A DNA stretch of 15,401 nucleotides. It comes from a virus. Taxonomy: Duplodnaviria; Heunggongvirae; Uroviricota; Caudoviricetes. Below are positions 773 to 15,401 of the stretch, piece after piece (the first letter of the stretch is position 1; each line of letters opens with the position of its first letter). The notes under the pieces are model-generated. The model saw nothing but the letters and a program-made list of their open reading frames with translations, had not been told where the DNA came from and ran no database searches. Made by a program: the position numbers and the translations under genes. The stretch lies in IMG/VR virus record IMGVR_UViG_2547132277_000010. One strand, written 5' to 3'.

Positions 773-1051
773 TCATTTTTCCTCTTTTGGTTTATGAATC
801 TGAATGGTCATGCCGCTTTGAGTGGTGACTACAATGACAGAACCAGGCTGAAGACTGTTAAGATTGAATGCTTCGTAAAACGAATCCAAGGCCAGCGCTT
901 TTTTATTCTTTCGGTTCCACCAACGCCATCCCTTGCTACAGGCTACACTGACAATCCACTGCCCACTCCTGTAAGCCATATAAAACCAGATGAGCAAAAC
1001 CTGAAGGAATGCTATCCAGTCAATAATCGTATATTTCGCGAAGGAGTACAT
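773..1051 (-). CDS. small membrane protein, 92 aa (one N-terminal hydrophobic helix)
   Basis: ATG at 1051..1049 shares one base with the TGA of the upstream DUF551 ORF (TGATG) and is preceded by GGAGGTGA; the track's start at 1054 is a GTG one codon upstream. Hydrophobic stretch IIDWIAFLQVLLIWFYMAY. Confidence 0.55.
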   Translation of the reverse strand: MYSFAKYTIIDWIAFLQVLLIWFYMAYRSGQWIVSVACSKGWRWWNRKNKKALALDSFYEAFNLNSLQPGSVIVVTTQSGMTIQIHKPKEEK

Positions 1052-1347
1052 CACTTCACCTCCTGCTGTGGTGCTGCTGGCATTTCACGCCAGTGCGTAA
1101 CTGAGTGCGGATCCGGATATTCGGTGCCATCATCCCAGCGATTGCCATTCCACATTGCAGACCACATCTCACCGTCTTCATACATGACCATTACCGGAAT
1201 TAACTTATCCGGCATTCGCTCACTACAGCTTATCCAACTATCCGGAGTTACCGGATAGTTGCCGGGTTCTTTAATGTGCAAGCGAGGCTCACCATCTTTT
1301 GGTTCAGGCCACTGGCGCTTCATGTTGATCTTCAATTTATCTTCCAT
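1051..1347 (-). CDS. DUF551-like phage protein; start uncertain (ATG at 1347 or 1323; the track's ATG at 1506 lies inside the upstream annealase gene)
   Basis: C-terminal region WISCSERMPD...VMYEDGEMW...NGNRWDDG resembles the DUF551 domain common in enterobacterial prophages. The upstream gene ends at 1367, so an internal Met start is most likely. Confidence 0.5.
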   Translation of the reverse strand: MEDKLKINMKRQWPEPKDGEPRLHIKEPGNYPVTPDSWISCSERMPDKLIPVMVMYEDGEMWSAMWNGNRWDDGTEYPDPHSVTHWREMPAAPQQEVK

Positions 1348-1366
1348 AGCAGCGGTAATTTCAGCA

Positions 1367-1930
1367 TCACTGATACCAGCACGGCGCTGTGCATCCCACA
1401 ACCGATGGAGATTTCTGGTTGGTATTTTCTGGTGATGGTTTGTTAACTGATGCTGGGATTGCCCATCCCGGCAGCGATGGAGGGAGCCAGTAAAATCCTG
1501 TTCCATCCTTCAGTTTTGCCCTGTGCCACCCCTGCTTTTTATCGAGAGATGTTTGTGCGAAACCTTCCTCAAGGTTATACAGATACCGACCGATTCCCCA
1601 CTGAACGGCAGCGCGCTTCATTGCACCGGAACGACCACCTTTGACGGCTTCTACCTGCGTGTTTTCAGCAGCATCCCATTTGGTTACCCATTCGGAATCA
1701 ATCTTTATCGATATGCCGCATTCAACGCCGCCGTTGTTGGGAATATCGCGGTATTCATTGCGCCATCCTGCTTTGCCGCAAACATCGTCCAGGCGTTTCA
1801 TGATTGCCCGGTTCGTGACATAAGCCAGCACCATAGCCCACACTTTGCCATCGCGTGTTTTACCGCTTTGCTGTATTCGCCATTCGATATCTTCAGGGCT
1901 GAATGGCTCATCGAATTTATTCAAATCCAT
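1367..1930 (-). CDS. Rad52/Rad22-family single-strand annealing protein (Sak-like recombinase), 187 aa
   Basis: ATG at 1930 preceded by GAGGTG. The translation has the Rad52/Sak-type N-terminal annealing-domain character (from memory). It occupies the bet position of a lambdoid pL operon. Confidence 0.8.
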   Translation of the reverse strand: MDLNKFDEPFSPEDIEWRIQQSGKTRDGKVWAMVLAYVTNRAIMKRLDDVCGKAGWRNEYRDIPNNGGVECGISIKIDSEWVTKWDAAENTQVEAVKGGRSGAMKRAAVQWGIGRYLYNLEEGFAQTSLDKKQGWHRAKLKDGTGFYWLPPSLPGWAIPASVNKPSPENTNQKSPSVVGCTAPCWYQ

Positions 1931-3411: not shown

Positions 3412-3795
3412 TTACCTGGCTGTCAGTTGTTTTGATTTCCGGTAGCCTGCTGCGTAAAGAGCTACATTTGGAAGACATACACCAGTTTCTGGTTGCTTAT
3501 GTCCAAACTCATTCGCGTACACAATGGCCGCTCGCTCCAGATTGCGTCTGTATTCTTTCTGTTGCCAGATCACGTCCTGTGCCATGAACTTAATTGGCTT
3601 AGCGTCTTCTATGCGCTCAGGCGTTTCGTGAGTACCTTTAGCCTGAATCTGCGCTCTGCTTAGAGTAGGGCGGTGTAATACTTCTGAACTTATTGCTTCT
3701 TCGCGGGCCAGCACGCCGTTAGCTAATGCCTTTGCCTTTAAACGCTCACGACGACGAGAACGTGAATTGCCTTTGAACTGAGTTCTGCGTGTCAT
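3412..3795 (-). CDS. N: N-type transcription antitermination protein (P22 gp24-like), 127 aa
   Basis: AGGAGG lies 5 nt upstream of the ATG at 3795. N-terminal arginine-rich motif (NSRSRRRERLKAKALA) and C-terminal LPNVALYAAGYRKSKQLTAR, matching the P22 gp24 C-terminus LPGVALYAAGHRKSKQITAR as I recall it. Confidence 0.85.
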   Translation of the reverse strand: MTRRTQFKGNSRSRRRERLKAKALANGVLAREEAISSEVLHRPTLSRAQIQAKGTHETPERIEDAKPIKFMAQDVIWQQKEYRRNLERAAIVYANEFGHKQPETGVCLPNVALYAAGYRKSKQLTAR

Positions 3796-3960: not shown

Positions 3961-3975
3961 GCGCTTTGTCAGCGC
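3961..3975 (-). promoter_or_regulatory. nutL boxB hairpin (minus-strand RNA GCGCUGACAAAGCGC)
   Basis: Plus strand gcgctttgtcagcgc. On the leftward transcript this is a 4 bp GC stem with loop UGACAAA, identical to the P22 boxB as I recall it. Lies between the candidate pL and N. Confidence 0.6.
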
Positions 3976-4044: not shown

Positions 4045-4083
4045 ATAATGAACCAATAGTTCGATATTATCAAGAACTATTGG
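4045..4083 (-). promoter_or_regulatory. candidate pL promoter (-35 TTGATA at 4073..4068, 17 bp spacer, -10 CATTAT at 4050..4045) overlapped by a 10 bp inverted repeat operator CCAATAGTTC-N11-GAACTATTGG
   Basis: Hexamers and inverted repeat (4053-4062 / 4074-4083) read from the sequence. The core AGTTC-N11-GAACT recurs in the cI/cro intergenic region as CAGTTC-N11-GTACTG. Confidence 0.4.
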
Positions 4084-4256
4084 TACGAATTTTTGTGATT
4101 TATTAACTCTGCGAAGTATGATTTTGATATATAAGGAAATTTATTTTTGTAAATGTGGCTGATGAAGGTTATGCGGCAGGGATCAGAACTGCATGGTTTA
4201 GCGAATTACATCAATAAATACAATTGGTTATGTGTTTTTTTTGGGGCGAGAGGCAA

Positions 4257-4286
4257 AGAAAACCCGGCGCTGAGGCCGGGTTTTTC
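4257..4286 (-). terminator. bidirectional intrinsic terminator (AAAA-AACCCGGC-GCTGAG-GCCGGGTT-TTTTT) ending the cI / accessory-gene operon
   Basis: 8 bp GC-rich stem with runs on both sides, placed directly after the stop of the 258 aa ORF. Confidence 0.65.
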
Positions 4287-5062
4287 TAGGCTACCAGAGA
4301 CTCAATCCAAGAGTCTCTGGTATGGAATGGCAACACTCGTGCGGTATCATTAAATAGTAGTGATAGTTGCTGTAGCTCAGGTGTTAACCCATCGCTGTCA
4401 ACTATTACAAATCTATTGTTTATGTCAGGAACGACCTGACTTAAGTCAACAATCTTCCCAACTGTTGAGTGGGCAGTATTCCATCCCTTACTGCTGGCAA
4501 GGCTTACCGTAAACCCGCGTTTTGGTGGTATTAGTCGAGACTCATTCCTTAGCGTTAACGGAACAGTAATGTTATGCCCACTAATACCTTTCACTTTTTC
4601 CTTTAAGGCTAGTCGCTTCCCAAGCCCTGCTGATTTTAAGTAACTGATTACACATTTTTCGAACTTATCGTCTTTGACCTCAGCATACCAATCAGCAGTT
4701 TGGGCGGATGCAAGAATCCCACCACGAATAACATTTGCAGTTACCTGTCCAACGGACGACTCATCTGCCCACGCAGATATCTCTCCAGAGTCATTTAATG
4801 AAATTCCTTGCGAAGCGAGTGATGACCTGATCAGATCAATTTTCTTTTTAGTCAGGTGGATGCCGCGTGATTCAATATTCATCAATGTATCGCAGTAGTC
4901 TGTAACCCTATACTGACCACTCATCTCTTGAACGAATACACTTATCTGCTCACAATCATCGTAGTATGTGAATGGACTAATAACGCGCAGCAACGTGTCG
5001 CTCATTGGGTGGCATTCAAACCCGAGCTTAGATATGACTGTTGAACACGTTACATTTCCCAT
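4286..5062 (-). CDS. hypothetical protein, 258 aa; distal gene of a two-gene accessory cassette in the rexAB-equivalent position
   Basis: ATG at 5062 lies 10 nt upstream of the stop of the 180 aa ORF (13 nt overlap); AGGT is upstream. No family recognised and no obvious transmembrane segments. The locus is visibly more AT-rich than flanking phage DNA. Confidence 0.75.
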   Translation of the reverse strand: MGNVTCSTVISKLGFECHPMSDTLLRVISPFTYYDDCEQISVFVQEMSGQYRVTDYCDTLMNIESRGIHLTKKKIDLIRSSLASQGISLNDSGEISAWADESSVGQVTANVIRGGILASAQTADWYAEVKDDKFEKCVISYLKSAGLGKRLALKEKVKGISGHNITVPLTLRNESRLIPPKRGFTVSLASSKGWNTAHSTVGKIVDLSQVVPDINNRFVIVDSDGLTPELQQLSLLFNDTARVLPFHTRDSWIESLVA

Positions 5063-5592
5063 GATAACTGACCTGATTTATCTTGATTAGGTAAAGGTGG
5101 GCTGCCTTCATATATGATATTAAGCGCCTCGCAAAAATAATTCCAGTAGCCAAAAAAATCATCTGGCTTGATGTTCGTTTCAAGCTTAAGTGCAATTTCT
5201 TCCCCAGCTGATTCGAAGTACATGTGATAGTGAGGACCTCGAGCCACCTCAACAAAATCTGGATGGTTCACTATAGATTTATTACGGTGTGGCTTGTTAT
5301 CCGCAGGGTACGGATCAAGCGCGTAAATGCGCCTGTCATGAAGAAACATCACAAATGAAATCTTCACTATATCCACCCCTTCAACGATAGGAGGACGCCA
5401 GTGAAGCATAAATCTTATGCCTGTGATTGGGTTGCCAATTTCATCAAAAGCTTTGAGATCCAATTTAAACCAGATTGGGGTTCGTCCCTCACTTCCGGTC
5501 CATGTAACTCCGCTAAAAGTTACTTTTTTCAAGCGAGTAATAGCTTGGTCAACCTCTTTCTGGGTAGGCTTAAAGTCGCCTTTTTTAGCCAC
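5050..5592 (-). CDS. hypothetical protein, 180 aa; proximal gene of the accessory cassette downstream of cI
   Basis: Longest ORF begins at GTG 5592 with no nearby in-frame ATG; GGTGA lies about 9 nt upstream. Same strand as cI, 97 bp downstream of its stop. No family recognised. Confidence 0.7.
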   Translation of the reverse strand: MAKKGDFKPTQKEVDQAITRLKKVTFSGVTWTGSEGRTPIWFKLDLKAFDEIGNPITGIRFMLHWRPPIVEGVDIVKISFVMFLHDRRIYALDPYPADNKPHRNKSIVNHPDFVEVARGPHYHMYFESAGEEIALKLETNIKPDDFFGYWNYFCEALNIIYEGSPPLPNQDKSGQLSWEM

Positions 5593-5689
5593 TGATTCGT
5601 ATCACCATGAAAGTTATTGTTAATACCTGTGCTTCTTGTCACCCAAACGTCTCTTCAGGCCACTGGCTATCAGCTATGTGACGATGAAG

Positions 5690-6397
5690 TCACGAACTTT
5701 TCAGCCACTCCCTTGCCTCGATGTCATCCAGATGGCGAGATTGCTTCAGAATACCAGCCACATACTCCACCTTTGCTACTTGATGATAAGGCAACGTTAT
5801 TGGCCTATGGTCCTGGTTGATGCTTGTAAACTGGTATTCTCCGTCTCTGTCATAGCCAAGAACTTTGATCATGTTGTGTCCTTCAACGGTTCTGACAAAC
5901 ACCTCATCACCCGGGAATACTTTGGTGTTAGGCTCAATGAGTACATATTCTCCTGATTTTATTCTAGGCCACATGCTGTCTCCTTTCACACGAAGACCAA
6001 AGGCATCTGGATCATCGCTATAAATCTTGAGCCACCCATCGCGCTCTTCGGTCATCTCGATGGCACCATCAACACCAAGAATTGCCTCACCAACCACGCG
6101 CACTAACCCTTTTTTTAATTTGCCAACAAATGAAAGAGTATCTTCATCATTCGCTCCATTTAACGAAGTGCCGTGCTGAAGCCAAACAACATCAACGTTT
6201 AGAAATTTCGCAAGCGCATTCATTTTTTCCTGACGCGGTAAAGACTCAGCATTAAACCACTTGCTAACGCCTTTGGACGAAAGAGAAAGGGCACGGGCTA
6301 TAGCCATTCCCCTACCATGTTCATCAAGACCAGCTTCTTTACAGGCTTGCGCTAGCCGCTGGGCGAATTCTTTGCGCACTTTTTCATTCTGAACCAT
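5690..6397 (-). CDS. cI: CI-type prophage repressor (N-terminal HTH, C-terminal LexA-like S24 peptidase domain), 235 aa
   Basis: HTH region MAIARALSLSSKGVSKWFNAES and C-terminal GDSMWP...VLIEP motifs typical of autocleaving repressors. Divergent from the cro-like gene. No Shine-Dalgarno before the ATG, consistent with a leaderless pRM transcript as in lambda. Confidence 0.9.
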   Translation of the reverse strand: MVQNEKVRKEFAQRLAQACKEAGLDEHGRGMAIARALSLSSKGVSKWFNAESLPRQEKMNALAKFLNVDVVWLQHGTSLNGANDEDTLSFVGKLKKGLVRVVGEAILGVDGAIEMTEERDGWLKIYSDDPDAFGLRVKGDSMWPRIKSGEYVLIEPNTKVFPGDEVFVRTVEGHNMIKVLGYDRDGEYQFTSINQDHRPITLPYHQVAKVEYVAGILKQSRHLDDIEAREWLKSS

Positions 6398-6404
6398 GAG
6401 TACG

Positions 6405-6457
6405 ATACTAAAGCACTTGCAAAAACTTTCAGTTCAATCATAATGTGTACTGAAAGT
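6405..6457. promoter_or_regulatory. OR/pR/pRM switch region: candidate pR (-35 TTGCAA 6417-6422, 16 bp spacer, -10 CATAAT 6439-6444) with operator-like inverted repeats
   Basis: Inverted repeat ACTTTCAGT (6425-6433) / ACTGAAAGT (6449-6457) and the AGTTC-N11-GnACT arrangement shared with the pL region. A weak pRM -10 (TAGTAT) would place the start at the cI ATG. Confidence 0.5.
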
Positions 6458-6475
6458 ACGAAAAAGGATATTCCT

Positions 6476-6703
6476 ATGCAAAATCTTGATGAGCCGATTA
6501 AAGGTGTCGGCATCCCTGAAGTTGCGAAGGCTTGTGGAGTTAGCGAAAGGGCTGTCTATAAGTGGCTCAAAAACGGCTTCCTCCCTAAGACTGAGTTTTT
6601 TGGGAAAACGAAATACGCATCAAAAATCGAAGAGATTTCTGGTGGCAAATATCAAGCAAGCGAAATGCTTGAAATAAGCAAAAAGAACCTTCTGGCTGCA
6701 TAA
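6476..6703 (+). CDS. cro: Cro-like HTH regulator, 75 aa (start at the internal ATG 6476, not the track's 6443)
   Basis: AAGGA lies 8 nt upstream of ATG 6476. HTH VAKACGVSERAVYKWLKNG. First rightward gene, divergent from cI. Confidence 0.75.
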   Translation: MQNLDEPIKGVGIPEVAKACGVSERAVYKWLKNGFLPKTEFFGKTKYASKIEEISGGKYQASEMLEISKKNLLAA

Positions 6704-8505: not shown

Positions 8506-10749
8506 ATGGCAGAAAAAAAGATGACTGACTGGCATCGCAAGGTGCTGTGCAACTTTGATAATGCCTGGTCAGCAACGCAGGATATGCGTGAGCAGATTAT
8601 TGAAGCTCAACGTTTCGTCCGGGTGTCCGGCGCACAGTGGGAAGGCAGCACAAACGCTGGTTACTCATTTGATGAAGGCAGGTTTGAGCATTACCCGCGC
8701 TTTGAGCTGAATAAGATTGCCCGTGAATGTGATCGCATCATTGGCGAGTATCGACAGAATCGCATCAGCGTTAAATTCAGGCCGAAGGATGACAAGGCAT
8801 CGGAAGCGTTAGCCGAAAAGATGAACGGCAAATTCCGCGCTGACTATCAGGAAACATCCGGTGGCGAAGCGTGTGATAACGCATTTGATGATGCTGTAAC
8901 GGGCGGATTCTGTTGTTTCCGCATGTGTGCCGATTACGAAGATGAAATGGACCCAAGTAACGAGCAGCGACGCATCAGCCTTCTTCCTGTTTACGACCCG
9001 GCCACATGCGTCTTCTTCGATCAGGACAGCAAGCAATATGACCGCTCTGATGCTATGTGGGCTATGGAAATGTTCTCCATGACGCCTAAAGCGTTCGAGG
9101 CTGAATACCCTGATTCCATCGCGGCAAGCCTTTCTCGTGATGACACTGGCACTCAATATGACTGGTCAACTCCTGATGCTATCTATGTTGGTCGCTACTA
9201 CGAAGTTCGCATAGAGAAGGTGAAGCTCACAGCATGGCGTAACCCTGTTAGCGGAGAAACGGCAATCTATGATGAAGATCAAATCAAAGATATTGTCGAC
9301 GAGCTGACCGATGGTGCATTCGAACTGATTGGCGAGCGAACGGTGAAGAAGCGCCGCGTTTATTGCGGTCTTCTGTCTGGCGCTGAATGGCTGGAAGAAC
9401 CGAAGCGTATTCCGGGCGAACATATTCCTCTCATCCCGGTATATGGGCGTCGATCATTTGTTGATAATCAGGAGCGAATCGAAGGTCACGCAGCAAAAGC
9501 GATGGATGCACAGCGTCTTGAGAACCTGATGGTTTCCATGATTGCAGATAACGCTACTCAAGCTGGCGGTGATGGCATTCCTGTAGTTGATGTTGACATG
9601 ATTCCTGGTCCTCTCGCCACTCATTGGGCGGAGCGCAACAAAAAGCGCCCGGCGTTCCTGCCGATGGTCAGTCTGAAAAACAAAAACGGAGATATTACTG
9701 CGCAGGCTCAGGTCAGCAGTTATACGCCTCCGACACAAATGCCTCCAGCTCTTGCCGGACTATTGCAGTACACCGGAACGGCTATTCAGCAAATTACAGG
9801 TGCGTCGCAGCTTGAGAACATGCCGAGCAACGTCGCTACCGATACCGTTGATAGCATCTTTAACCGGATGGACACGCAGTCCTATATCTACATGGACAAC
9901 ATGGCTAAATCCATGCGCCGTGCTGGCGTCGTGTGGCTTTCTATGGCTCGTGAAGTCTATGGCAGTGATGCGCCGATGCGTATCGTTAATGAGGACGGCA
10001 GCGATGACGTGGCGCTGATGACTGGTGAAGTGGTTGACCGTCAGACAGGGCAGGTTATCGCGCTTAATGACCTTTCGCAGGGTAACTATGAAGTGACTGT
10101 CGATGTTGGCCAGTCGTTCGCTACTCGCCGTGATGCAACGGTTAAGTCGTTACTTTCCATGCTGGCACTTATCTGGCCACAACGGGCGTTCATCCACTGG
10201 CGCATTCAACTGGCAAAAAGTCTGACCGAGTATAATCGGGTCTATCAATCTGCATTCTCACCGAACTTACTCGAACGCCCGCGTCTGGAAAGCCATCTAC
10301 AAAAACTCCTGACCGATGCCGTGAAAATGCGTGGGCTGATTGCGCCCGCCAGCAAAGAAACCCGTATTCCAAAATCGATATATGAAGGTATCCAGACCAT
10401 TAATCGCAATCTGGTTTGTATGCTGGAGTTGCAAATCAATGCATACTGGGCCACGCGCCCCAGCCATTTCGTGTTATTGAACGCGCAAAAACTTCGTGAT
10501 ACCCAGCATATGATGCAGCAAATACTGCTGAGCCTTGTTCATGCGCTGTACGAAGGTAATCCGCAGCCGGTTTTTGCCAATACGGAAAAATTGAACGATG
10601 CTGTGGAAGAGCTGCGTCAGTTGCTGAATAACCACCATGACCTGAAGGTTGTGGAAACACCAATCTATGGTTATGTGTGGCTGAACATGGAAACGGCACA
10701 TCAGCTTGAGTTGCTATCGAATCTGATTTGCCGGGCCTTGCGCAAATAA
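8506..10749 (+). CDS. P22 gp1-type portal protein, apparently chimeric: portal-like to about residue 555, then ~190 residues of unrelated sequence
   Basis: N-terminal FDNAWSATQDMREQ..., central RRVY...GEHIPLIPVYG and ...VDVGQSFATRRDATVKSLLSML parallel P22 portal segments (from memory). The C-terminal tail (from about 10170) lacks the Q/E/A-rich portal barrel and looks like a different soluble domain. Confidence 0.75.
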   Translation: MAEKKMTDWHRKVLCNFDNAWSATQDMREQIIEAQRFVRVSGAQWEGSTNAGYSFDEGRFEHYPRFELNKIARECDRIIGEYRQNRISVKFRPKDDKASEALAEKMNGKFRADYQETSGGEACDNAFDDAVTGGFCCFRMCADYEDEMDPSNEQRRISLLPVYDPATCVFFDQDSKQYDRSDAMWAMEMFSMTPKAFEAEYPDSIAASLSRDDTGTQYDWSTPDAIYVGRYYEVRIEKVKLTAWRNPVSGETAIYDEDQIKDIVDELTDGAFELIGERTVKKRRVYCGLLSGAEWLEEPKRIPGEHIPLIPVYGRRSFVDNQERIEGHAAKAMDAQRLENLMVSMIADNATQAGGDGIPVVDVDMIPGPLATHWAERNKKRPAFLPMVSLKNKNGDITAQAQVSSYTPPTQMPPALAGLLQYTGTAIQQITGASQLENMPSNVATDTVDSIFNRMDTQSYIYMDNMAKSMRRAGVVWLSMAREVYGSDAPMRIVNEDGSDDVALMTGEVVDRQTGQVIALNDLSQGNYEVTVDVGQSFATRRDATVKSLLSMLALIWPQRAFIHWRIQLAKSLTEYNRVYQSAFSPNLLERPRLESHLQKLLTDAVKMRGLIAPASKETRIPKSIYEGIQTINRNLVCMLELQINAYWATRPSHFVLLNAQKLRDTQHMMQQILLSLVHALYEGNPQPVFANTEKLNDAVEELRQLLNNHHDLKVVETPIYGYVWLNMETAHQLELLSNLICRALRK

Positions 10750-11707: not shown

Positions 11708-12147
11708 GGAACGTAGTTCTCACCAATAAATAAGCGTCAATACGGTGCTCCGTTGACGCTTACTTTAATCCGTTTTCTGAGCTTAGATTTTTCTGTTCCT
11801 ACCCAGACCGTGGATTTGGAATTCATTTTTTGTCAGGTCAATGCTAATCGTTAAAACGGCCATAACGCACCTCCACTGGAAGGTTTATCAGTAATATCCT
11901 ACCGTTGCTTCATGGTCGGGGCGTCCATTCCATTATTATCGGTTTTCCTTTCTGTTTATAAATGAAAACGCCAGCTGTATTCAGGCTGGCGTCAGGGGAA
12001 ATGAAGCCTGTTGAGTGAGATTCACCGGTTCTGGTGCAGAAGCTGCAGATGGCGCAGGGTAAGGACATCTTCTCTTGCCTGCTTAATACAGGACAACAGT
12101 GCTGTTTCTGTGGTTAATGGCACTATACCCTGCATCACTGCATTGTC

Positions 12148-12342
12148 TTACAGCAACTGGTGAGGGCTGGCATAAGTTGCCGGTGTTTCGGTAGAGTCAC
12201 GGTCATCCACCACGCGGAGTGAATAACCTTTTTCAGCGGCCTTATTAATCAGTTCAGTGATATTAACACCATCAATGTCAACGACAATGTGCCCCATATC
12301 CAGCGCCTGTACGTTAACGCTGTCGGCTTCCAGTGTCATCAT
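12148..12342 (-). CDS. yeeW: YeeW-like small protein, 64 aa
   Basis: Its ATG overlaps the TGA of the restored cbtA reading frame (ATGA). Position and size match the gene that follows cbtA in CP4-44-type islands. Confidence 0.55.
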   Translation of the reverse strand: MMTLEADSVNVQALDMGHIVVDIDGVNITELINKAAEKGYSLRVVDDRDSTETPATYASPHQLL

Positions 12343-12712
12343 TTCGCCTCCGGATACTTACCCAGGGTAATGTTATTTACCGTTCTGTAATTGTCGCGGG
12401 TCATCAGGCCGGTCGCCCTGCGAGCCCGGAGGATATCGATGCTGTTTATTAACTGAGAGCGGGTACAGGCGCTGAATCCCGGCTGGTCGGTAGCACCAGC
12501 GCGTATTTTTCCACGAGAAAGTTCACCGCATCACACAGTGAAATGCCTGCCTCAATATGCTGCTCAATCACACGTTCATCGGCAAAAGGTGTGTCATTCA
12601 GTGTGAGGCCATAGTGCTGGTCCAGCAGTCGGGACAGCAGTATCTGCCAGATTTCAACAGGAGACGGGCGAGAACTGGTCGCCTGCCCGGGTAATACAGG
12701 TAATGTTTTCAT
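12339..12712 (-). pseudogene. cbtA: CbtA (YeeV)-family type IV toxin gene disrupted by a 1-base frameshift near 12493
   Basis: The track ORF gives 87 aa ending ...[19 protein letters not shown]. The next frame continues [46 protein letters not shown], matching the YeeV C-terminus as I recall it. One base appears to be missing after GTGC. Confidence 0.7.
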
Positions 12713-12800
12713 ACTGAAGATTTTCCTGATATGCAGATATAAAAATGGAAAAGTGGCGTGGTGAAAACACCAGGCCGTAGCAGAAGGCTATTCTGGAGAG

Positions 12801-13169
12801 TTAATTTTTCATTTCGGGCGTCGGATAAACAGCCAGATAAACGTAACCACAACTGCTGAGGGTATCGGCTTTGCAGGTCAGCCCTTTTGCATACAGCGTG
12901 ACGGTATGCTGATGGCGGGGATTCAGTTCACCGCTGGTGAGCATGAGTTCCAGTTGTTTCATCAGCAGCGGAAAGGCCTGGTCCAGGTGGTACGCATCTG
13001 CATCGCTGAACAGGCCTCTGATACCGGCGCGGTCGGCAAGGTAATGCAACCGGTTACCCTCCTGCACCAGACGTGCCCCGAAACAGGGCGTCACGGTGCA
13101 GGGCAGCCCCCACCAGGGGCGGTCGTGATTGTCGTCGGGAAGTGTTGTCCCGGGGAGTGTGTCTGACAC
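12801..13169 (-). CDS. cbeA: CbeA (YeeU)-family type IV antitoxin, 122 aa
   Basis: MSDTLPGTTLPDDNHDRPWWGLPCTVTPCFGARLVQEGNRLHYLADRAGI... matches YeeU/YfjZ-family antitoxins from memory. Starts at GTG 13169 with AAGGA upstream. Confidence 0.85.
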   Translation of the reverse strand: MSDTLPGTTLPDDNHDRPWWGLPCTVTPCFGARLVQEGNRLHYLADRAGIRGLFSDADAYHLDQAFPLLMKQLELMLTSGELNPRHQHTVTLYAKGLTCKADTLSSCGYVYLAVYPTPEMKN

Positions 13170-13242
13170 GATAAAATCCTTACAGAAAATCGGCTAAGAA
13201 TGGTCCGGTAGTGGCGATAATTCTGCTCATCAGAATTCCCAC

Positions 13243-13464
13243 TCAGTTCAGGGTGACGCTCATCAGCCGGACATACGGACCAAAACTGTCCTTACGACGT
13301 TCAGCAAACACGGCCAGCACACCGGGAATATCCTGCACTTCACGACCGGTATACGCTTCAGCACTGCCATGCCAGCGGTATTTACCGGTACAGAACGGAA
13401 AAAGACGGGATGTCGGATGTTGTTGGTGAATACGCATGGCTTCACCACGGGTGATAATTTTCAT
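13243..13464 (-). CDS. DUF987 protein (YeeT/YpjJ/YkfH family), 73 aa
   Basis: MKIITRGEAMRIHQQHPTSRLFPFCTGKYRWHG... is typical of this family. GAGGT lies upstream of the ATG. Confidence 0.8.
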   Translation of the reverse strand: MKIITRGEAMRIHQQHPTSRLFPFCTGKYRWHGSAEAYTGREVQDIPGVLAVFAERRKDSFGPYVRLMSVTLN

Positions 13465-13526
13465 AATGGGATACCTCTGAAGACAGAAGATAAAAGTGAA
13501 AACAGGTGTGATGTGGTTGTGAAGGG

Positions 13527-14003
13527 TTAAAGCAGACCATGTTCGGCAAAGGAGAAAACCTGGTTGCCACCGACTATCAGATGGTCCGGCACCCGGATAT
13601 CCACCAGGCCCAGTGCCTGTACCAGACGTTCCGTGATAAGGCGGTCTGCCTTACTGGGTGTGACTTCACCGGAGGGGTGATTGTGTGCCAGCACCACGGC
13701 AGCGGCATTGTGGTACAGGGCGCGTTTAATCACTTCCCGGGGATGGACTTCCGTGCGGTTGATGGTGCCGGTAAAGAGGGTTTCACCGGCAATCAGTTGA
13801 TTCTGGTTATTCAGATACAGCACCCGGAATTCTTCACGCTCCAGTCCCGCCATGTTCAGAATCAGCCATTCCCGTGCTGCACGGGTGGAGGTGAAGGCCA
13901 CGCCGGGTTCATGAAGATGGCGGTCCAGGGTTTTCAGGGCCCGTTGAATGAGGCTGCGCTCGCCGGGCGTCATCTCTCCGGGCAGAAAGGAAAGTTGTTG
14001 CAT
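13527..14003 (-). CDS. RadC-like JAB/MPN domain protein (YeeS/YfjY family), 158 aa from ATG 14003
   Basis: Contains the HNHPSG motif and surrounding RadC-like sequence. GGAGAG lies 7 nt upstream of ATG 14003; the track's ATG at 14018 has no RBS. Confidence 0.85.
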   Translation of the reverse strand: MQQLSFLPGEMTPGERSLIQRALKTLDRHLHEPGVAFTSTRAAREWLILNMAGLEREEFRVLYLNNQNQLIAGETLFTGTINRTEVHPREVIKRALYHNAAAVVLAHNHPSGEVTPSKADRLITERLVQALGLVDIRVPDHLIVGGNQVFSFAEHGLL

Positions 14004-14018
14004 TGTGCTTCTCTCCAT

Positions 14019-14498
14019 TCAGTCGATGATGCGCATAATGGCGCTGCATTCCGGATGCTGCAGGGCGTAATCCCGCAACCGGTAATAATGGACCGTCATG
14101 GCATAATTCTCCGTACGACAGGCATGATGACTGTACGTCATCAGACAGGCGGCAATACCGGCGGCTTCCGGGCTCATTTCTGCGCGGTTACCGTTCATGG
14201 CATTGAACAGTACCCATGTTTCGTCATCATCGTCATCCGGTTCGGGTGCCATAAATGCCCCGCCGTTGTTCAGGGTGTACAGATTCCAGATACCACCGCA
14301 GTAGTCTTCGCACAGACGGTCCATCCAGCCGAAGACACGGGGCTCCAGGGTCACCCACTGTGGAATGAGGCCAAAATGCTGCGGCCAGAAGCTGATGCGC
14401 TGTTCATCAGGGACGAGGCTGGCAACCAACTGAGGCGGATTATTCTCTGGTGTTGTAGCTGAATAAATTGTGGGGGTATTCTGAGAAACGGTTTTCAT
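14019..14498 (-). CDS. antirestriction protein (YfjX/YafX-type), 159 aa
   Basis: AAGGAG lies 7 nt upstream of the ATG. Acidic stretch PEPDDDDDETW and the C-terminal region are typical of this family in CP4-type islands. Confidence 0.8.
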   Translation of the reverse strand: MKTVSQNTPTIYSATTPENNPPQLVASLVPDEQRISFWPQHFGLIPQWVTLEPRVFGWMDRLCEDYCGGIWNLYTLNNGGAFMAPEPDDDDDETWVLFNAMNGNRAEMSPEAAGIAACLMTYSHHACRTENYAMTVHYYRLRDYALQHPECSAIMRIID

Positions 14499-14579
14499 GA
14501 GATAACTCCTTAAATAACAAATAAATGTGTGTTTTTCAGGAACGAAAGCTGAATGATTCCCTCACTCAGGGAAACGGCA

Positions 14580-15401
14580 TCAGCGCAGGCTCTCCAGCAT
14601 CGTTTCTGCCATCACCCACAATGCGCGATTGAGCTTAATGTCGGTATCAATGCTGTGAATGGCACGGGTATGGATACGTTTTCCTTTTGCACTGCGACCG
14701 GAAATCCCGCCTTTCAGCATATTCTCTTGGATGGTCTGATATGCGCTCCACAGGTCCTTACCGTAATCCTCCCGGCGTCGCGGCGTCAGAATGTCGGCGG
14801 TGGTGACGGGCTGATGTTCGTCACCATAACGGTAAGTCAGTGCCGCCTGTGCCAGCGCCTGGCGTGCCGGTGGCGGCAGGACCAGCGACTGCATGGCATC
14901 ACGCTTCTCCTCTATCCGGTCAAACACGCCCACCACCTCGTAAGCCCCTTCGATAACTTTCTCCACTACATTTCCCCGGTGTGGAACACGCACTTCCCCC
15001 AGAGACTGGCCACAGACGCACCCGTTCTGGCAGACGAACCTGAAGTAACCCGGCAGCATCTGGTAGCTGGAGGTACCGTCATGAGAGTTGAGCAGAATAA
15101 TTTCAGGGACATGTTCTCCGTTTATCTCTCCGGCCCGCCGCAGACGCAGCATGTGTTTTGTGTATCCCCGGCGGCCCGGGTCGCGCACACGGGTCTGGCA
15201 GGCGAAGAACGGCTGAAAGCCTTCCCGCTGCAGATTTTCCAGGACGGTAATGGTGGGAATGTACGCATACCGTTCACTGCGGGAGGTGTGCCGGTCTTCC
15301 CCAAAAATACTGGGTACATGGCGTATCAGTTCTTCATGTGTCAGCGGACGGTCACGGCGTATCTGGTTTGCAGCATAACCAAAACGACTTGCTAATCGCA
15401 T
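14580..15401 (-). CDS. DUF932 protein (YfjQ/YafZ family), 273 aa; its ATG is the last three bases of the window
   Basis: Length and sequence character match the DUF932 proteins that precede the antirestriction/RadC/TA module in CP4-type islands. Confidence 0.8.
   Translation of the reverse strand: MRLASRFGYAANQIRRDRPLTHEELIRHVPSIFGEDRHTSRSERYAYIPTITVLENLQREGFQPFFACQTRVRDPGRRGYTKHMLRLRRAGEINGEHVPEIILLNSHDGTSSYQMLPGYFRFVCQNGCVCGQSLGEVRVPHRGNVVEKVIEGAYEVVGVFDRIEEKRDAMQSLVLPPPARQALAQAALTYRYGDEHQPVTTADILTPRRREDYGKDLWSAYQTIQENMLKGGISGRSAKGKRIHTRAIHSIDTDIKLNRALWVMAETMLESLR

Follow-up and report, generated by a model that had tools for sequence, protein, structure and literature searches.

Which genes can stand in for the lambda exclusion genes rexA and rexB, and what would they do for the lysogen that carries them? 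The question is raised by a stretch of 15,401 nucleotides from a Caudoviricetes virus record (IMG/VR IMGVR_UViG_2547132277_000010), hereafter called the window, in which two overlapping minus-strand open reading frames (ORFs), here named A and B, follow a cI-type repressor gene. The whole window is 100% identical to the chromosome of TW10598, an enterotoxigenic Escherichia coli (ETEC) strain. Few positions in a prophage are expressed in every lysogen; the slot behind the repressor gene is among them, and its occupants in lambda, rexAB, founded the study of phage exclusion. Other occupants of the slot are exclusion genes as well, such as nun of HK022, stk of 933W, and bstA of BTP1. The A-B pair is probably a lysogen-expressed two-protein anti-phage module, acting in superinfection exclusion or abortive infection and taking the place of rexAB in the repressor operon, a reading to which we give a probability of roughly 0.6. 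It is based on an exact replacement of rexAB, an association with many different repressors, a strict pairing of the two genes, purifying selection on both, a nuclease fold in B, and two computational defence flags.

A two-gene unit in the rexAB slot

The replacement can be seen in E. coli O104:H4 2011C-3493, which carries the same A-B pair, at 99.3-100% DNA identity, beside a near-lambda cI. Its alignment with lambda falls into two blocks, one covering lambda 37227-38255, from the cI stop codon through cro (97%), and the other covering lambda 35550-35831, from OL/pL to the last 7 nt of rexB (89.5%). The A-B pair replaces exactly lambda 35832-37226 between them, which corresponds to rexB, rexA, and the rexA-cI spacer. 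In the window, the lambda segment that follows rexB (35754-35831) has its homologue at positions 4211-4287, and the terminator hairpin behind B falls within this stretch. On the other side of the pair, the spacer between cI and A contains what is left of a lambda-type cI, namely its 3′ end (Table 1); the window's own cI, which is unrelated, has its stop codon upstream of this relic. The BLAST match to lambda spans 5639-5669, and the homology to the O104:H4 module also stops at 5669; the relic at 5639-5665 marks the upstream recombination boundary of the cassette module. This scar shows that the cassette entered the present prophage by recombination from a lambda-immunity context. The assignment of the two genes to the rexAB slot by a first-pass annotation made from the letters alone is literally correct and is sharpened by the exact exchange in O104:H4, both flanks of which have homologues in the window.

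The same annotation had described two overlapping minus-strand ORFs of 180 and 258 amino acids that share 13 nt, directly downstream of cI and on its strand. The same coordinates were obtained here, with a 97-nt spacer between cI and A, and RefSeq agrees with them in TW10598, where A is WP_001074607.1 ('hypothetical') and B is WP_000528776.1 ('DUF1828 domain-containing'). Homologues of the cassette ORFs are found with E-values down to 1e-167, and the ratios of nonsynonymous to synonymous substitution rates (dN/dS), about 0.05 for A and about 0.01 for B, indicate strong purifying selection on both genes. These two results exclude the possibility that A and B are chance or decaying ORFs. The opening of gene A, GTGGCTAA(A/G)AA(A/G), is common to 11/11 representative loci that were aligned, and the overlap of the two genes suggests that their translation is coupled.

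The pairing was followed in 90 loci, which were collected from a B profile search of viral contigs, from contigs encoding B homologues, and from the first two genome loci, and in 8 further loci, of which six came from a search started from A, one from a lambdoid phage, and one from a Pseudomonas phage. In 98/98 loci, whether the search was started from B or from A, B directly follows A and the two genes overlap; close-clade pairs share 13 nt and sister-clade pairs 4 nt. No case of one gene kept intact with the other lost was found among the 98 loci. The sole disrupted pair among them (L054, IMGVR_UViG_2548876529_000017) shows frameshifts in both A and B. All loci belong to Enterobacterales, apart from one Pseudomonas phage.

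The same-strand gene upstream of A falls into 23 sequence clusters, 22 of which are repressors, and a lambda-type cI occupies this position in 33/90 loci, where the spacer between cI and A is 46 nt. The only neighbour that is not a repressor is a DUF3024 protein (L057, 383-724), in a locus whose sequence extends only 382 bases upstream of it. Co-occurrence of the pair with cI-type repressors, which had been put forward as a check, is borne out by the pairing in every locus and by a repressor upstream in nearly all. The order cI-A-B-N-sieB is shown by the sister pair in the viable phages ev207, ev017, PhiR63_2, and PhiR57_1, and in an Stx1a phage. The Pseudomonas D3-like phage vB_PaD_phPA-G has an extra gene after CI, followed by an A-like ORF and by an annotated B-like gene that overlaps it by 4 nt. 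The extra gene encodes 216 aa, and the A-like ORF of this phage is unannotated (L098 3848-4432; PP083311.1 ~14449-15033; hidden Markov model E 9e-9).

The cassette moves as one unit, complete with a ribosome-binding region and a terminator of its own. The proposal that it is a horizontally acquired moron, or modular cargo, is supported by the approximately 22 repressor clusters upstream of the pair and by the cI 3′-end relic in the window. The visible AT-richness that had been adduced for this proposal is marginal: the GC content of the cassette is 43.1%, compared with 41.4% in cro, 45.9% in cI, 44.6% in the left prophage arm, and 47.8% in the whole window, and the GC content of third codon positions (GC3) differs little from gene to gene.

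Domain content of A and B

Protein A is a soluble and mostly beta protein. Residues that are invariant or near-invariant in its family are K22, W31, R88, D93, H102-x-N104, H121-x-H123, F153, and P168, and its conserved, GQ-containing C-terminal tail is disordered in the model. Conserved segments at its two ends read MAKK..P.Q.EVD (N-terminal) and SGQLSWEM (C-terminal). The D..HxN..HxH cluster looks like a metal or catalytic site, to judge from the conservation pattern. Against Pfam DUF6978, A obtains 23.6 bits, below the gathering cut-off of 29.6 and over its C-terminal half only, and DUF6978 is matched at E <= 0.01 by 6/28 wider A-family members; A may be regarded as a distant relative of DUF6978 and of PDC-M24A, a family of candidate defence proteins considered below. 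A borderline match to the FHIT profile (E 0.11) aligns the histidine triad with H121-x-H123. Assignment of A to the HIT superfamily was rejected, as the HxHxHxx motif on a HIT fold was not found in A and the fold evidence is unsupportive. The family is narrow: it has only 52 matching clusters (50% identity) in a set of 1.84 billion representative proteins, and the A profile, run against a single genome of each species, returned six loci, all in Enterobacterales.

Protein B can be divided into two parts. The N-terminal part contains DUF1828 (residues 30-112, E 2.5e-10, 40.9 bits against a Pfam cut-off of 22), a domain whose fold resembles that of type III secretion chaperones, and the C-terminal part, from about residue 130 to 258, is a DUF1829-like domain with a PD-(D/E)xK fold, in which the alpha-beta-beta-beta-alpha-beta core is present. 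The AlphaFold model of B has a predicted local distance difference test (pLDDT) score of 82. For the sister B protein, which is 51% identical to B, the HHpred results in Table S5 of DefensePredictor give DUF1829 (clan PDDEXK) at 98.8%. Conserved residues of the C-terminal part are E135, S161-G-H163, K181, T185, K203, D206, R217, D222, and Q232. The invariant H163 is located at the site where the Asp of strand 2 is expected, strand 3 carries T185-x-S187 without ExK, and K203 and D206 are placed on the next helix. The domain may have an active site that has moved, of the kind known from the NgoMIV/Cfr10I group, or it may be non-catalytic.

Both proteins had at first been described as unrecognisable. 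This description holds for A, for which no structural match was found, but not for B, in which a DUF1828 domain and a DUF1829-like domain of PD-(D/E)xK fold can be named, and both proteins weakly match PDC-M24. The absence of a Walker A, HNH, or transmembrane signature, which had been judged by eye, agrees with the present results: profile searches with A and B matched no Walker A or HNH family, and no membrane segment was predicted in either protein, the maximum 19-residue Kyte-Doolittle hydropathy being 1.22 for A and 0.79 for B. In NCBIfam, there is no family for A or B.

Defence predictions and competing readings

The pair resembles lambda rexA-rexB in its slot and flanking sequences (the cI 3′ end on one side; the hairpin region and OL/pL on the other) and in having two genes on the cI strand. 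Lysogen expression is presumed for both pairs, and an exclusion role is expected. However, the proteins themselves are different. RexB is a polytopic membrane protein, whereas A and B have no membrane segment, and a nuclease-fold protein together with a protein of unrecognised fold is unlike RexAB. BLASTP comparisons of A and of B with RexA gave E-values of at least 0.6, that of A with RexB gave 6.4, and neither protein has a Rex match in Pfam or PHROG. The mechanism of A-B cannot be that of the Rex membrane-depolarisation model.

Two computational flags for defence, independent of each other, concern proteins of this kind. In PADLOC, A matches PDC-M24A (E 3.8e-4) over residues 98-160 only, that is 63 residues, and B matches PDC-M24B (E 5.4e-7) over residues 5-169, about 165 residues; PADLOC gave no other match for either protein. 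PDC-M24A is also matched by 4/28 wider A-family members, with a best E-value of 7e-7. PDC-M24 is a candidate two-gene system that was put forward by 'guilt by embedding', from cassettes lodged within BREX, DISARM, or type I restriction-modification systems (Payne et al. 2024, bioRxiv 10.1101/2024.01.29.577857). It shares with A-B the order of A then B on one strand, the presence of DUF1828 in B-type proteins, and its candidate status. In contrast to this embedding, all A-B loci examined are prophage or phage immunity regions, and the matches may reflect, weakly, a distant kinship with PDC-M24 rather than membership. The second flag comes from DefensePredictor, which places the sister pair WP_001062368.1 and WP_000968518.1 in the class 'predicted novel defense gene', at log-odds 4.9-6.3, from the source strains CFT073, Nissle 1917, and ECOR (DeWeirdt et al., Science 2026, PMC13092281, Tables S5 and S10). 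Its cluster representative for A is WP_001074607.1, the very protein encoded in the window (PMC13092281). The sister proteins are approximately 40% (A) and 51% (B) identical to those of the window and occupy the same cI-A-B-N slot, whereas the overlap of their genes is 4 nt instead of 13 nt.

Among systems that couple a sensor to a PD-(D/E)xK effector, Can2/Card1 and NucC differ from the present pair, because B has an N-terminal chaperone-like fold in place of a CARF or nucleotide-sensing domain, a canonical catalytic motif is not evident in it, and no signal-making enzyme is recognised in the cassette. A survey of the literature on DUF1828, DUF6978, PDC-M24, both WP accessions, the PHROG numbers, and the phage names retrieved no functional characterisation. 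The pair has thus been flagged computationally and never characterised, one of its proteins has an unrecognised fold, and a defence role is plausible from its sequence and genomic setting. Three previously unconnected threads are joined at this locus, namely PDC-M24 of PADLOC, the DefensePredictor predictions, and the rexAB locus.

In the proposed anti-phage role, A-B would be transcribed together with cI from the maintenance promoter, and the transcript would end at the conserved hairpin, as does that of lambda cI-rexA-rexB. Translational coupling would set a fixed ratio of A to B, which would act as a complex. The nuclease-fold domain of B would be a DNA-directed effector or a DNA-binding part, its chaperone-like domain would bind either a phage protein or the unstructured conserved end of A, and the histidine cluster of A would bind a metal and supply a second catalytic or sensing activity. 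When another phage, heteroimmune or lytic, infects the cell, the complex would be triggered and would block that phage. This particular division of labour between A and B is put forward tentatively, at a level well below that of the anti-phage role itself. It is likewise conceivable, albeit doubtful, that the pair is a mechanistically new immune module, in which A would be a new fold with a metal or catalytic D-HxN-HxH centre, partnered by a chaperone-fold sensor and a non-canonical PD-(D/E)xK domain, and which temperate phages of E. coli (those of O104:H4, CFT073, and Nissle 1917 included), other Enterobacterales, and Pseudomonas would swap for rexAB to exclude their rivals. If true, this would mean new sensing or effector chemistry.

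Several points weigh against an anti-phage role. No function could be assigned to A, which has no structural match. In B, the canonical D..(D/E)xK signature is not evident, as neither a catalytic D nor a (D/E)xK was found in the expected arrangement, and the nuclease-fold domain may for this reason be non-catalytic. The PDC-M24 matches are weak and partial, and the co-transcription with cI is drawn from the gene layout. Since the cassette is 99-100% identical to that of O104:H4, its survival in a decayed prophage says little on selection in this host. Moreover, the DefensePredictor tables of screened and validated units contain neither the pair nor its sister clade (PMC13092281), and the literature yielded no experimental test of either.

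Two small, overlapping, and strictly co-inherited genes could also form a toxin-antitoxin or addiction module with a stabilising effect on the prophage; the nuclease-like B would then be toxic and A would neutralise it, or the reverse, and defence would be a by-product. The nuclease fold in B and the persistence of the cassette in a decayed prophage are consistent with such a module, as is the DUF1829-containing DS-6B protein, which has been proposed as the antitoxin-like partner of a HipA-like kinase. However, profile searches detected neither a DNA-binding antitoxin domain nor a known toxin family in A or B. No autoregulated promoter is evident, there being only a 46-nt spacer to the lambda-type cI, and a search for a promoter private to the cassette in the spacer (46-97 nt) produced weak consensus matches only, which did not exceed those in shuffled sequence. 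In addition, the fixed position in a repressor operon, rather than at scattered sites, is atypical of stand-alone pairs. An addiction module is considered unlikely on this evidence, and it would not be exclusive of the anti-phage role, as it is compatible with abortive infection.

The location in the repressor operon could instead point to an accessory of the lysis-lysogeny switch, through which the pair would influence how stable the repressor is or how readily the prophage is induced, and would not act on other phages. A precedent for this is provided by Hex of phage 434, which is made from the PRM transcript, and a regulatory role has also been proposed for RexA. Furthermore, 19/22 repressor clusters upstream of the pair have a helix-turn-helix (HTH) domain with Peptidase_S24, and are thus of the self-cleaving type. 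The remaining 3/22 are short (123-137 aa) and without S24, one of them with a weak HTH_3 match, and identity of the partner repressors to lambda cI is as low as 16-24%; such diversity, with some partners devoid of S24, makes a repressor-specific partner unlikely. Neither a nuclease-fold domain nor an HxH protein would be expected of a switch accessory, and the distant PDC-M24 relatives are embedded in restriction or BREX loci without a repressor. A switch function is accordingly given little credence, and the anti-phage role remains the preferred reading of the operon position.

The distribution of the pair is informative for a third reading. Among complete E. coli genomes (n=5,426), this clade occurs in 61 (1.1%) and the sister clade in 239-241 (4.4%), the carriers of the latter including CFT073, Nissle 1917, and the E. 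coli type strain. Although the PD-(D/E)xK fold is common to repair and recombination nucleases such as Bax1, NucS, and XisH-like proteins, and the carriers span pathogens and commensals (O104:H4, CFT073, and Nissle 1917 included), a function in DNA repair, recombination, or another host benefit by lysogenic conversion, unrelated to phage, is highly improbable, as no link to a repair locus was seen, every examined locus is a temperate-phage immunity region, and the rare and patchy occurrence in E. coli is the pattern typical of accessory defence cargo.

Immunity region, decayed prophage, and carrier strains

The cassette is set in an immunity region whose parts are listed in Table 1. The repressor gene cI is presumed to be the first gene of the lysogenic operon that bears the cassette. 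The hairpin that follows B has the sequence CCCGGC-CTCAGC-GCCGGG followed by TTTTCTTT, with a folding energy of -21.5 kcal/mol (z = -2.95), and is kept in related loci or replaced by another G+C-rich hairpin in the same place. It was not flagged by a simple terminator scan, probably because the flanking A/T runs can extend the stem. Further downstream, an 11-nt perfect inverted repeat (4052-4062 and 4074-4084, ACCAATAGTTC ... GAACTATTGGT) brackets the pL-like promoter. A stringent search for repeats shared by OL and OR (15-mers, <=3 mismatches) gave no match, and a looser one gave a single shared 18-mer with 3 mismatches, at 6390-6407 beside the cI start in the cI-cro spacer. The inverted repeat and the 18-mer are suggestive, and only that, of possible operator sites of this repressor. 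The boxB-like hairpin is, we presume, of the P22 type. That the cassette ends at a strong terminator just upstream of pL and nutL, as proposed earlier, is in agreement with the hairpin, the pL-like hexamers, and the boxB-like hairpin found here. The N gene, which is the first of the leftward early operon, bounds the cassette slot. In RefSeq, only a 69-bp 'antitermination protein' fragment (3412-3480) of the N ORF is annotated, and the gene is likewise under-annotated in O104:H4.

Table 1. Positions in the window of the A-B cassette, the immunity-region genes, and the putative regulatory elements
Feature	Position	Strand	Description
N antiterminator ORF	3412..3795	-	127 aa, intact, Pfam N_peptide E 1e-15
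boxB-like hairpin	3961..3975	-	GCGCTGACAAAGCGC, putative nutL
pL-like hexamers	4073-4045	-	TTGATA-17-CATTAT, putative OL/pL
Terminator-like hairpin	4254..4285	-	stem-loop 4263-4280, then T-run; directly after B stop
Gene B	4286..5062	-	258 aa, ATG start
A stop/B start overlap	5050..5062	-	13 nt (ATGGGAAATGTAA)
Gene A	5050..5592	-	180 aa, GTG start (first in-frame start codon)
Shine-Dalgarno-like GGTGAT and conserved GTG start of A	5590..5606	-	
Lambda-type cI 3′-end relic	5639..5665	-	27 nt, encodes ..QWPEETFG*, in cI-A spacer
cI-type repressor gene	5690..6397	-	235 aa, HTH_3 and Peptidase_S24, intact
cro-like HTH gene	6443..6703	+	divergent from cI, completes immunity region

The window as a whole consists of a decayed lambdoid prophage adjoining sbcB and, after it, a CP4-44-like island. 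The prophage is heavily deleted, with 0 replication genes annotated and a truncated portal gene; the earlier picture of a prophage that lost blocks of genes and kept an intact repressor is confirmed by this deletion and by the HTH_3/Peptidase_S24 repressor. A 747-aa ORF at 8506-10749 (plus strand) is a chimera, the N-terminal two thirds of which are a phage portal protein and the C-terminal part the end of a host FUSC-family gene, which we take from the K-12 gene order to be yeeA-like. RefSeq represents the chimera as two adjacent pseudogenes with a junction near 10126-10131, and this junction marks the deletion that took the rest of the prophage and some host genes. Another internal deletion, in the early-left region of the prophage, is found at 1051-1930 (minus strand), where a Rad52/Rad22-type recombinase gene without its C-terminus abuts a dATP/dGTP pyrophosphohydrolase fragment without its N-terminus. 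The CP4-44-like island (11900-15401) contains genes for a DUF932 protein and an antirestriction protein, yeeS, yeeT, cbeA, and a frameshifted cbtA, so that the antitoxin gene cbeA is intact and the toxin gene cbtA is broken.

For the sister clade, the cassette of CFT073 (NZ_CP058222.1 2975907-2977213) is located in a lambdoid prophage that this strain shares with Nissle 1917, where its sequence is the same. Unidentified genes of 'prophage 3' of Nissle have been proposed to complete its resistance to lambda and Stx phages (Bury et al. 2018), and the sister cassette is a candidate for this missing resistance factor. The 'phage repressor (pr)' of the same study, which protects K-12, was considered and is not in the cassette, as its primers map to cII of the same prophage and not to a repressor gene; this mapping applies to the cloning primer PR_P2_fwd and the quantitative PCR pair, and PR_P1_rev was not found.

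As a clean allelic replacement of rexAB, the cassette is a well-defined and easily cloned candidate of approximately 1.4 kb, the natural expression context of which is known. With A devoid of a recognisable fold and B bearing an atypical nuclease-fold site, a positive phenotype would probably yield a new mechanism. This clade or its sister is carried by about 5% of complete E. coli genomes, including the 2011 O104:H4 outbreak strain, CFT073, and the probiotic Nissle 1917, and the cassette could therefore bear on the resistance of these carrier strains to lambdoid and Stx phages.

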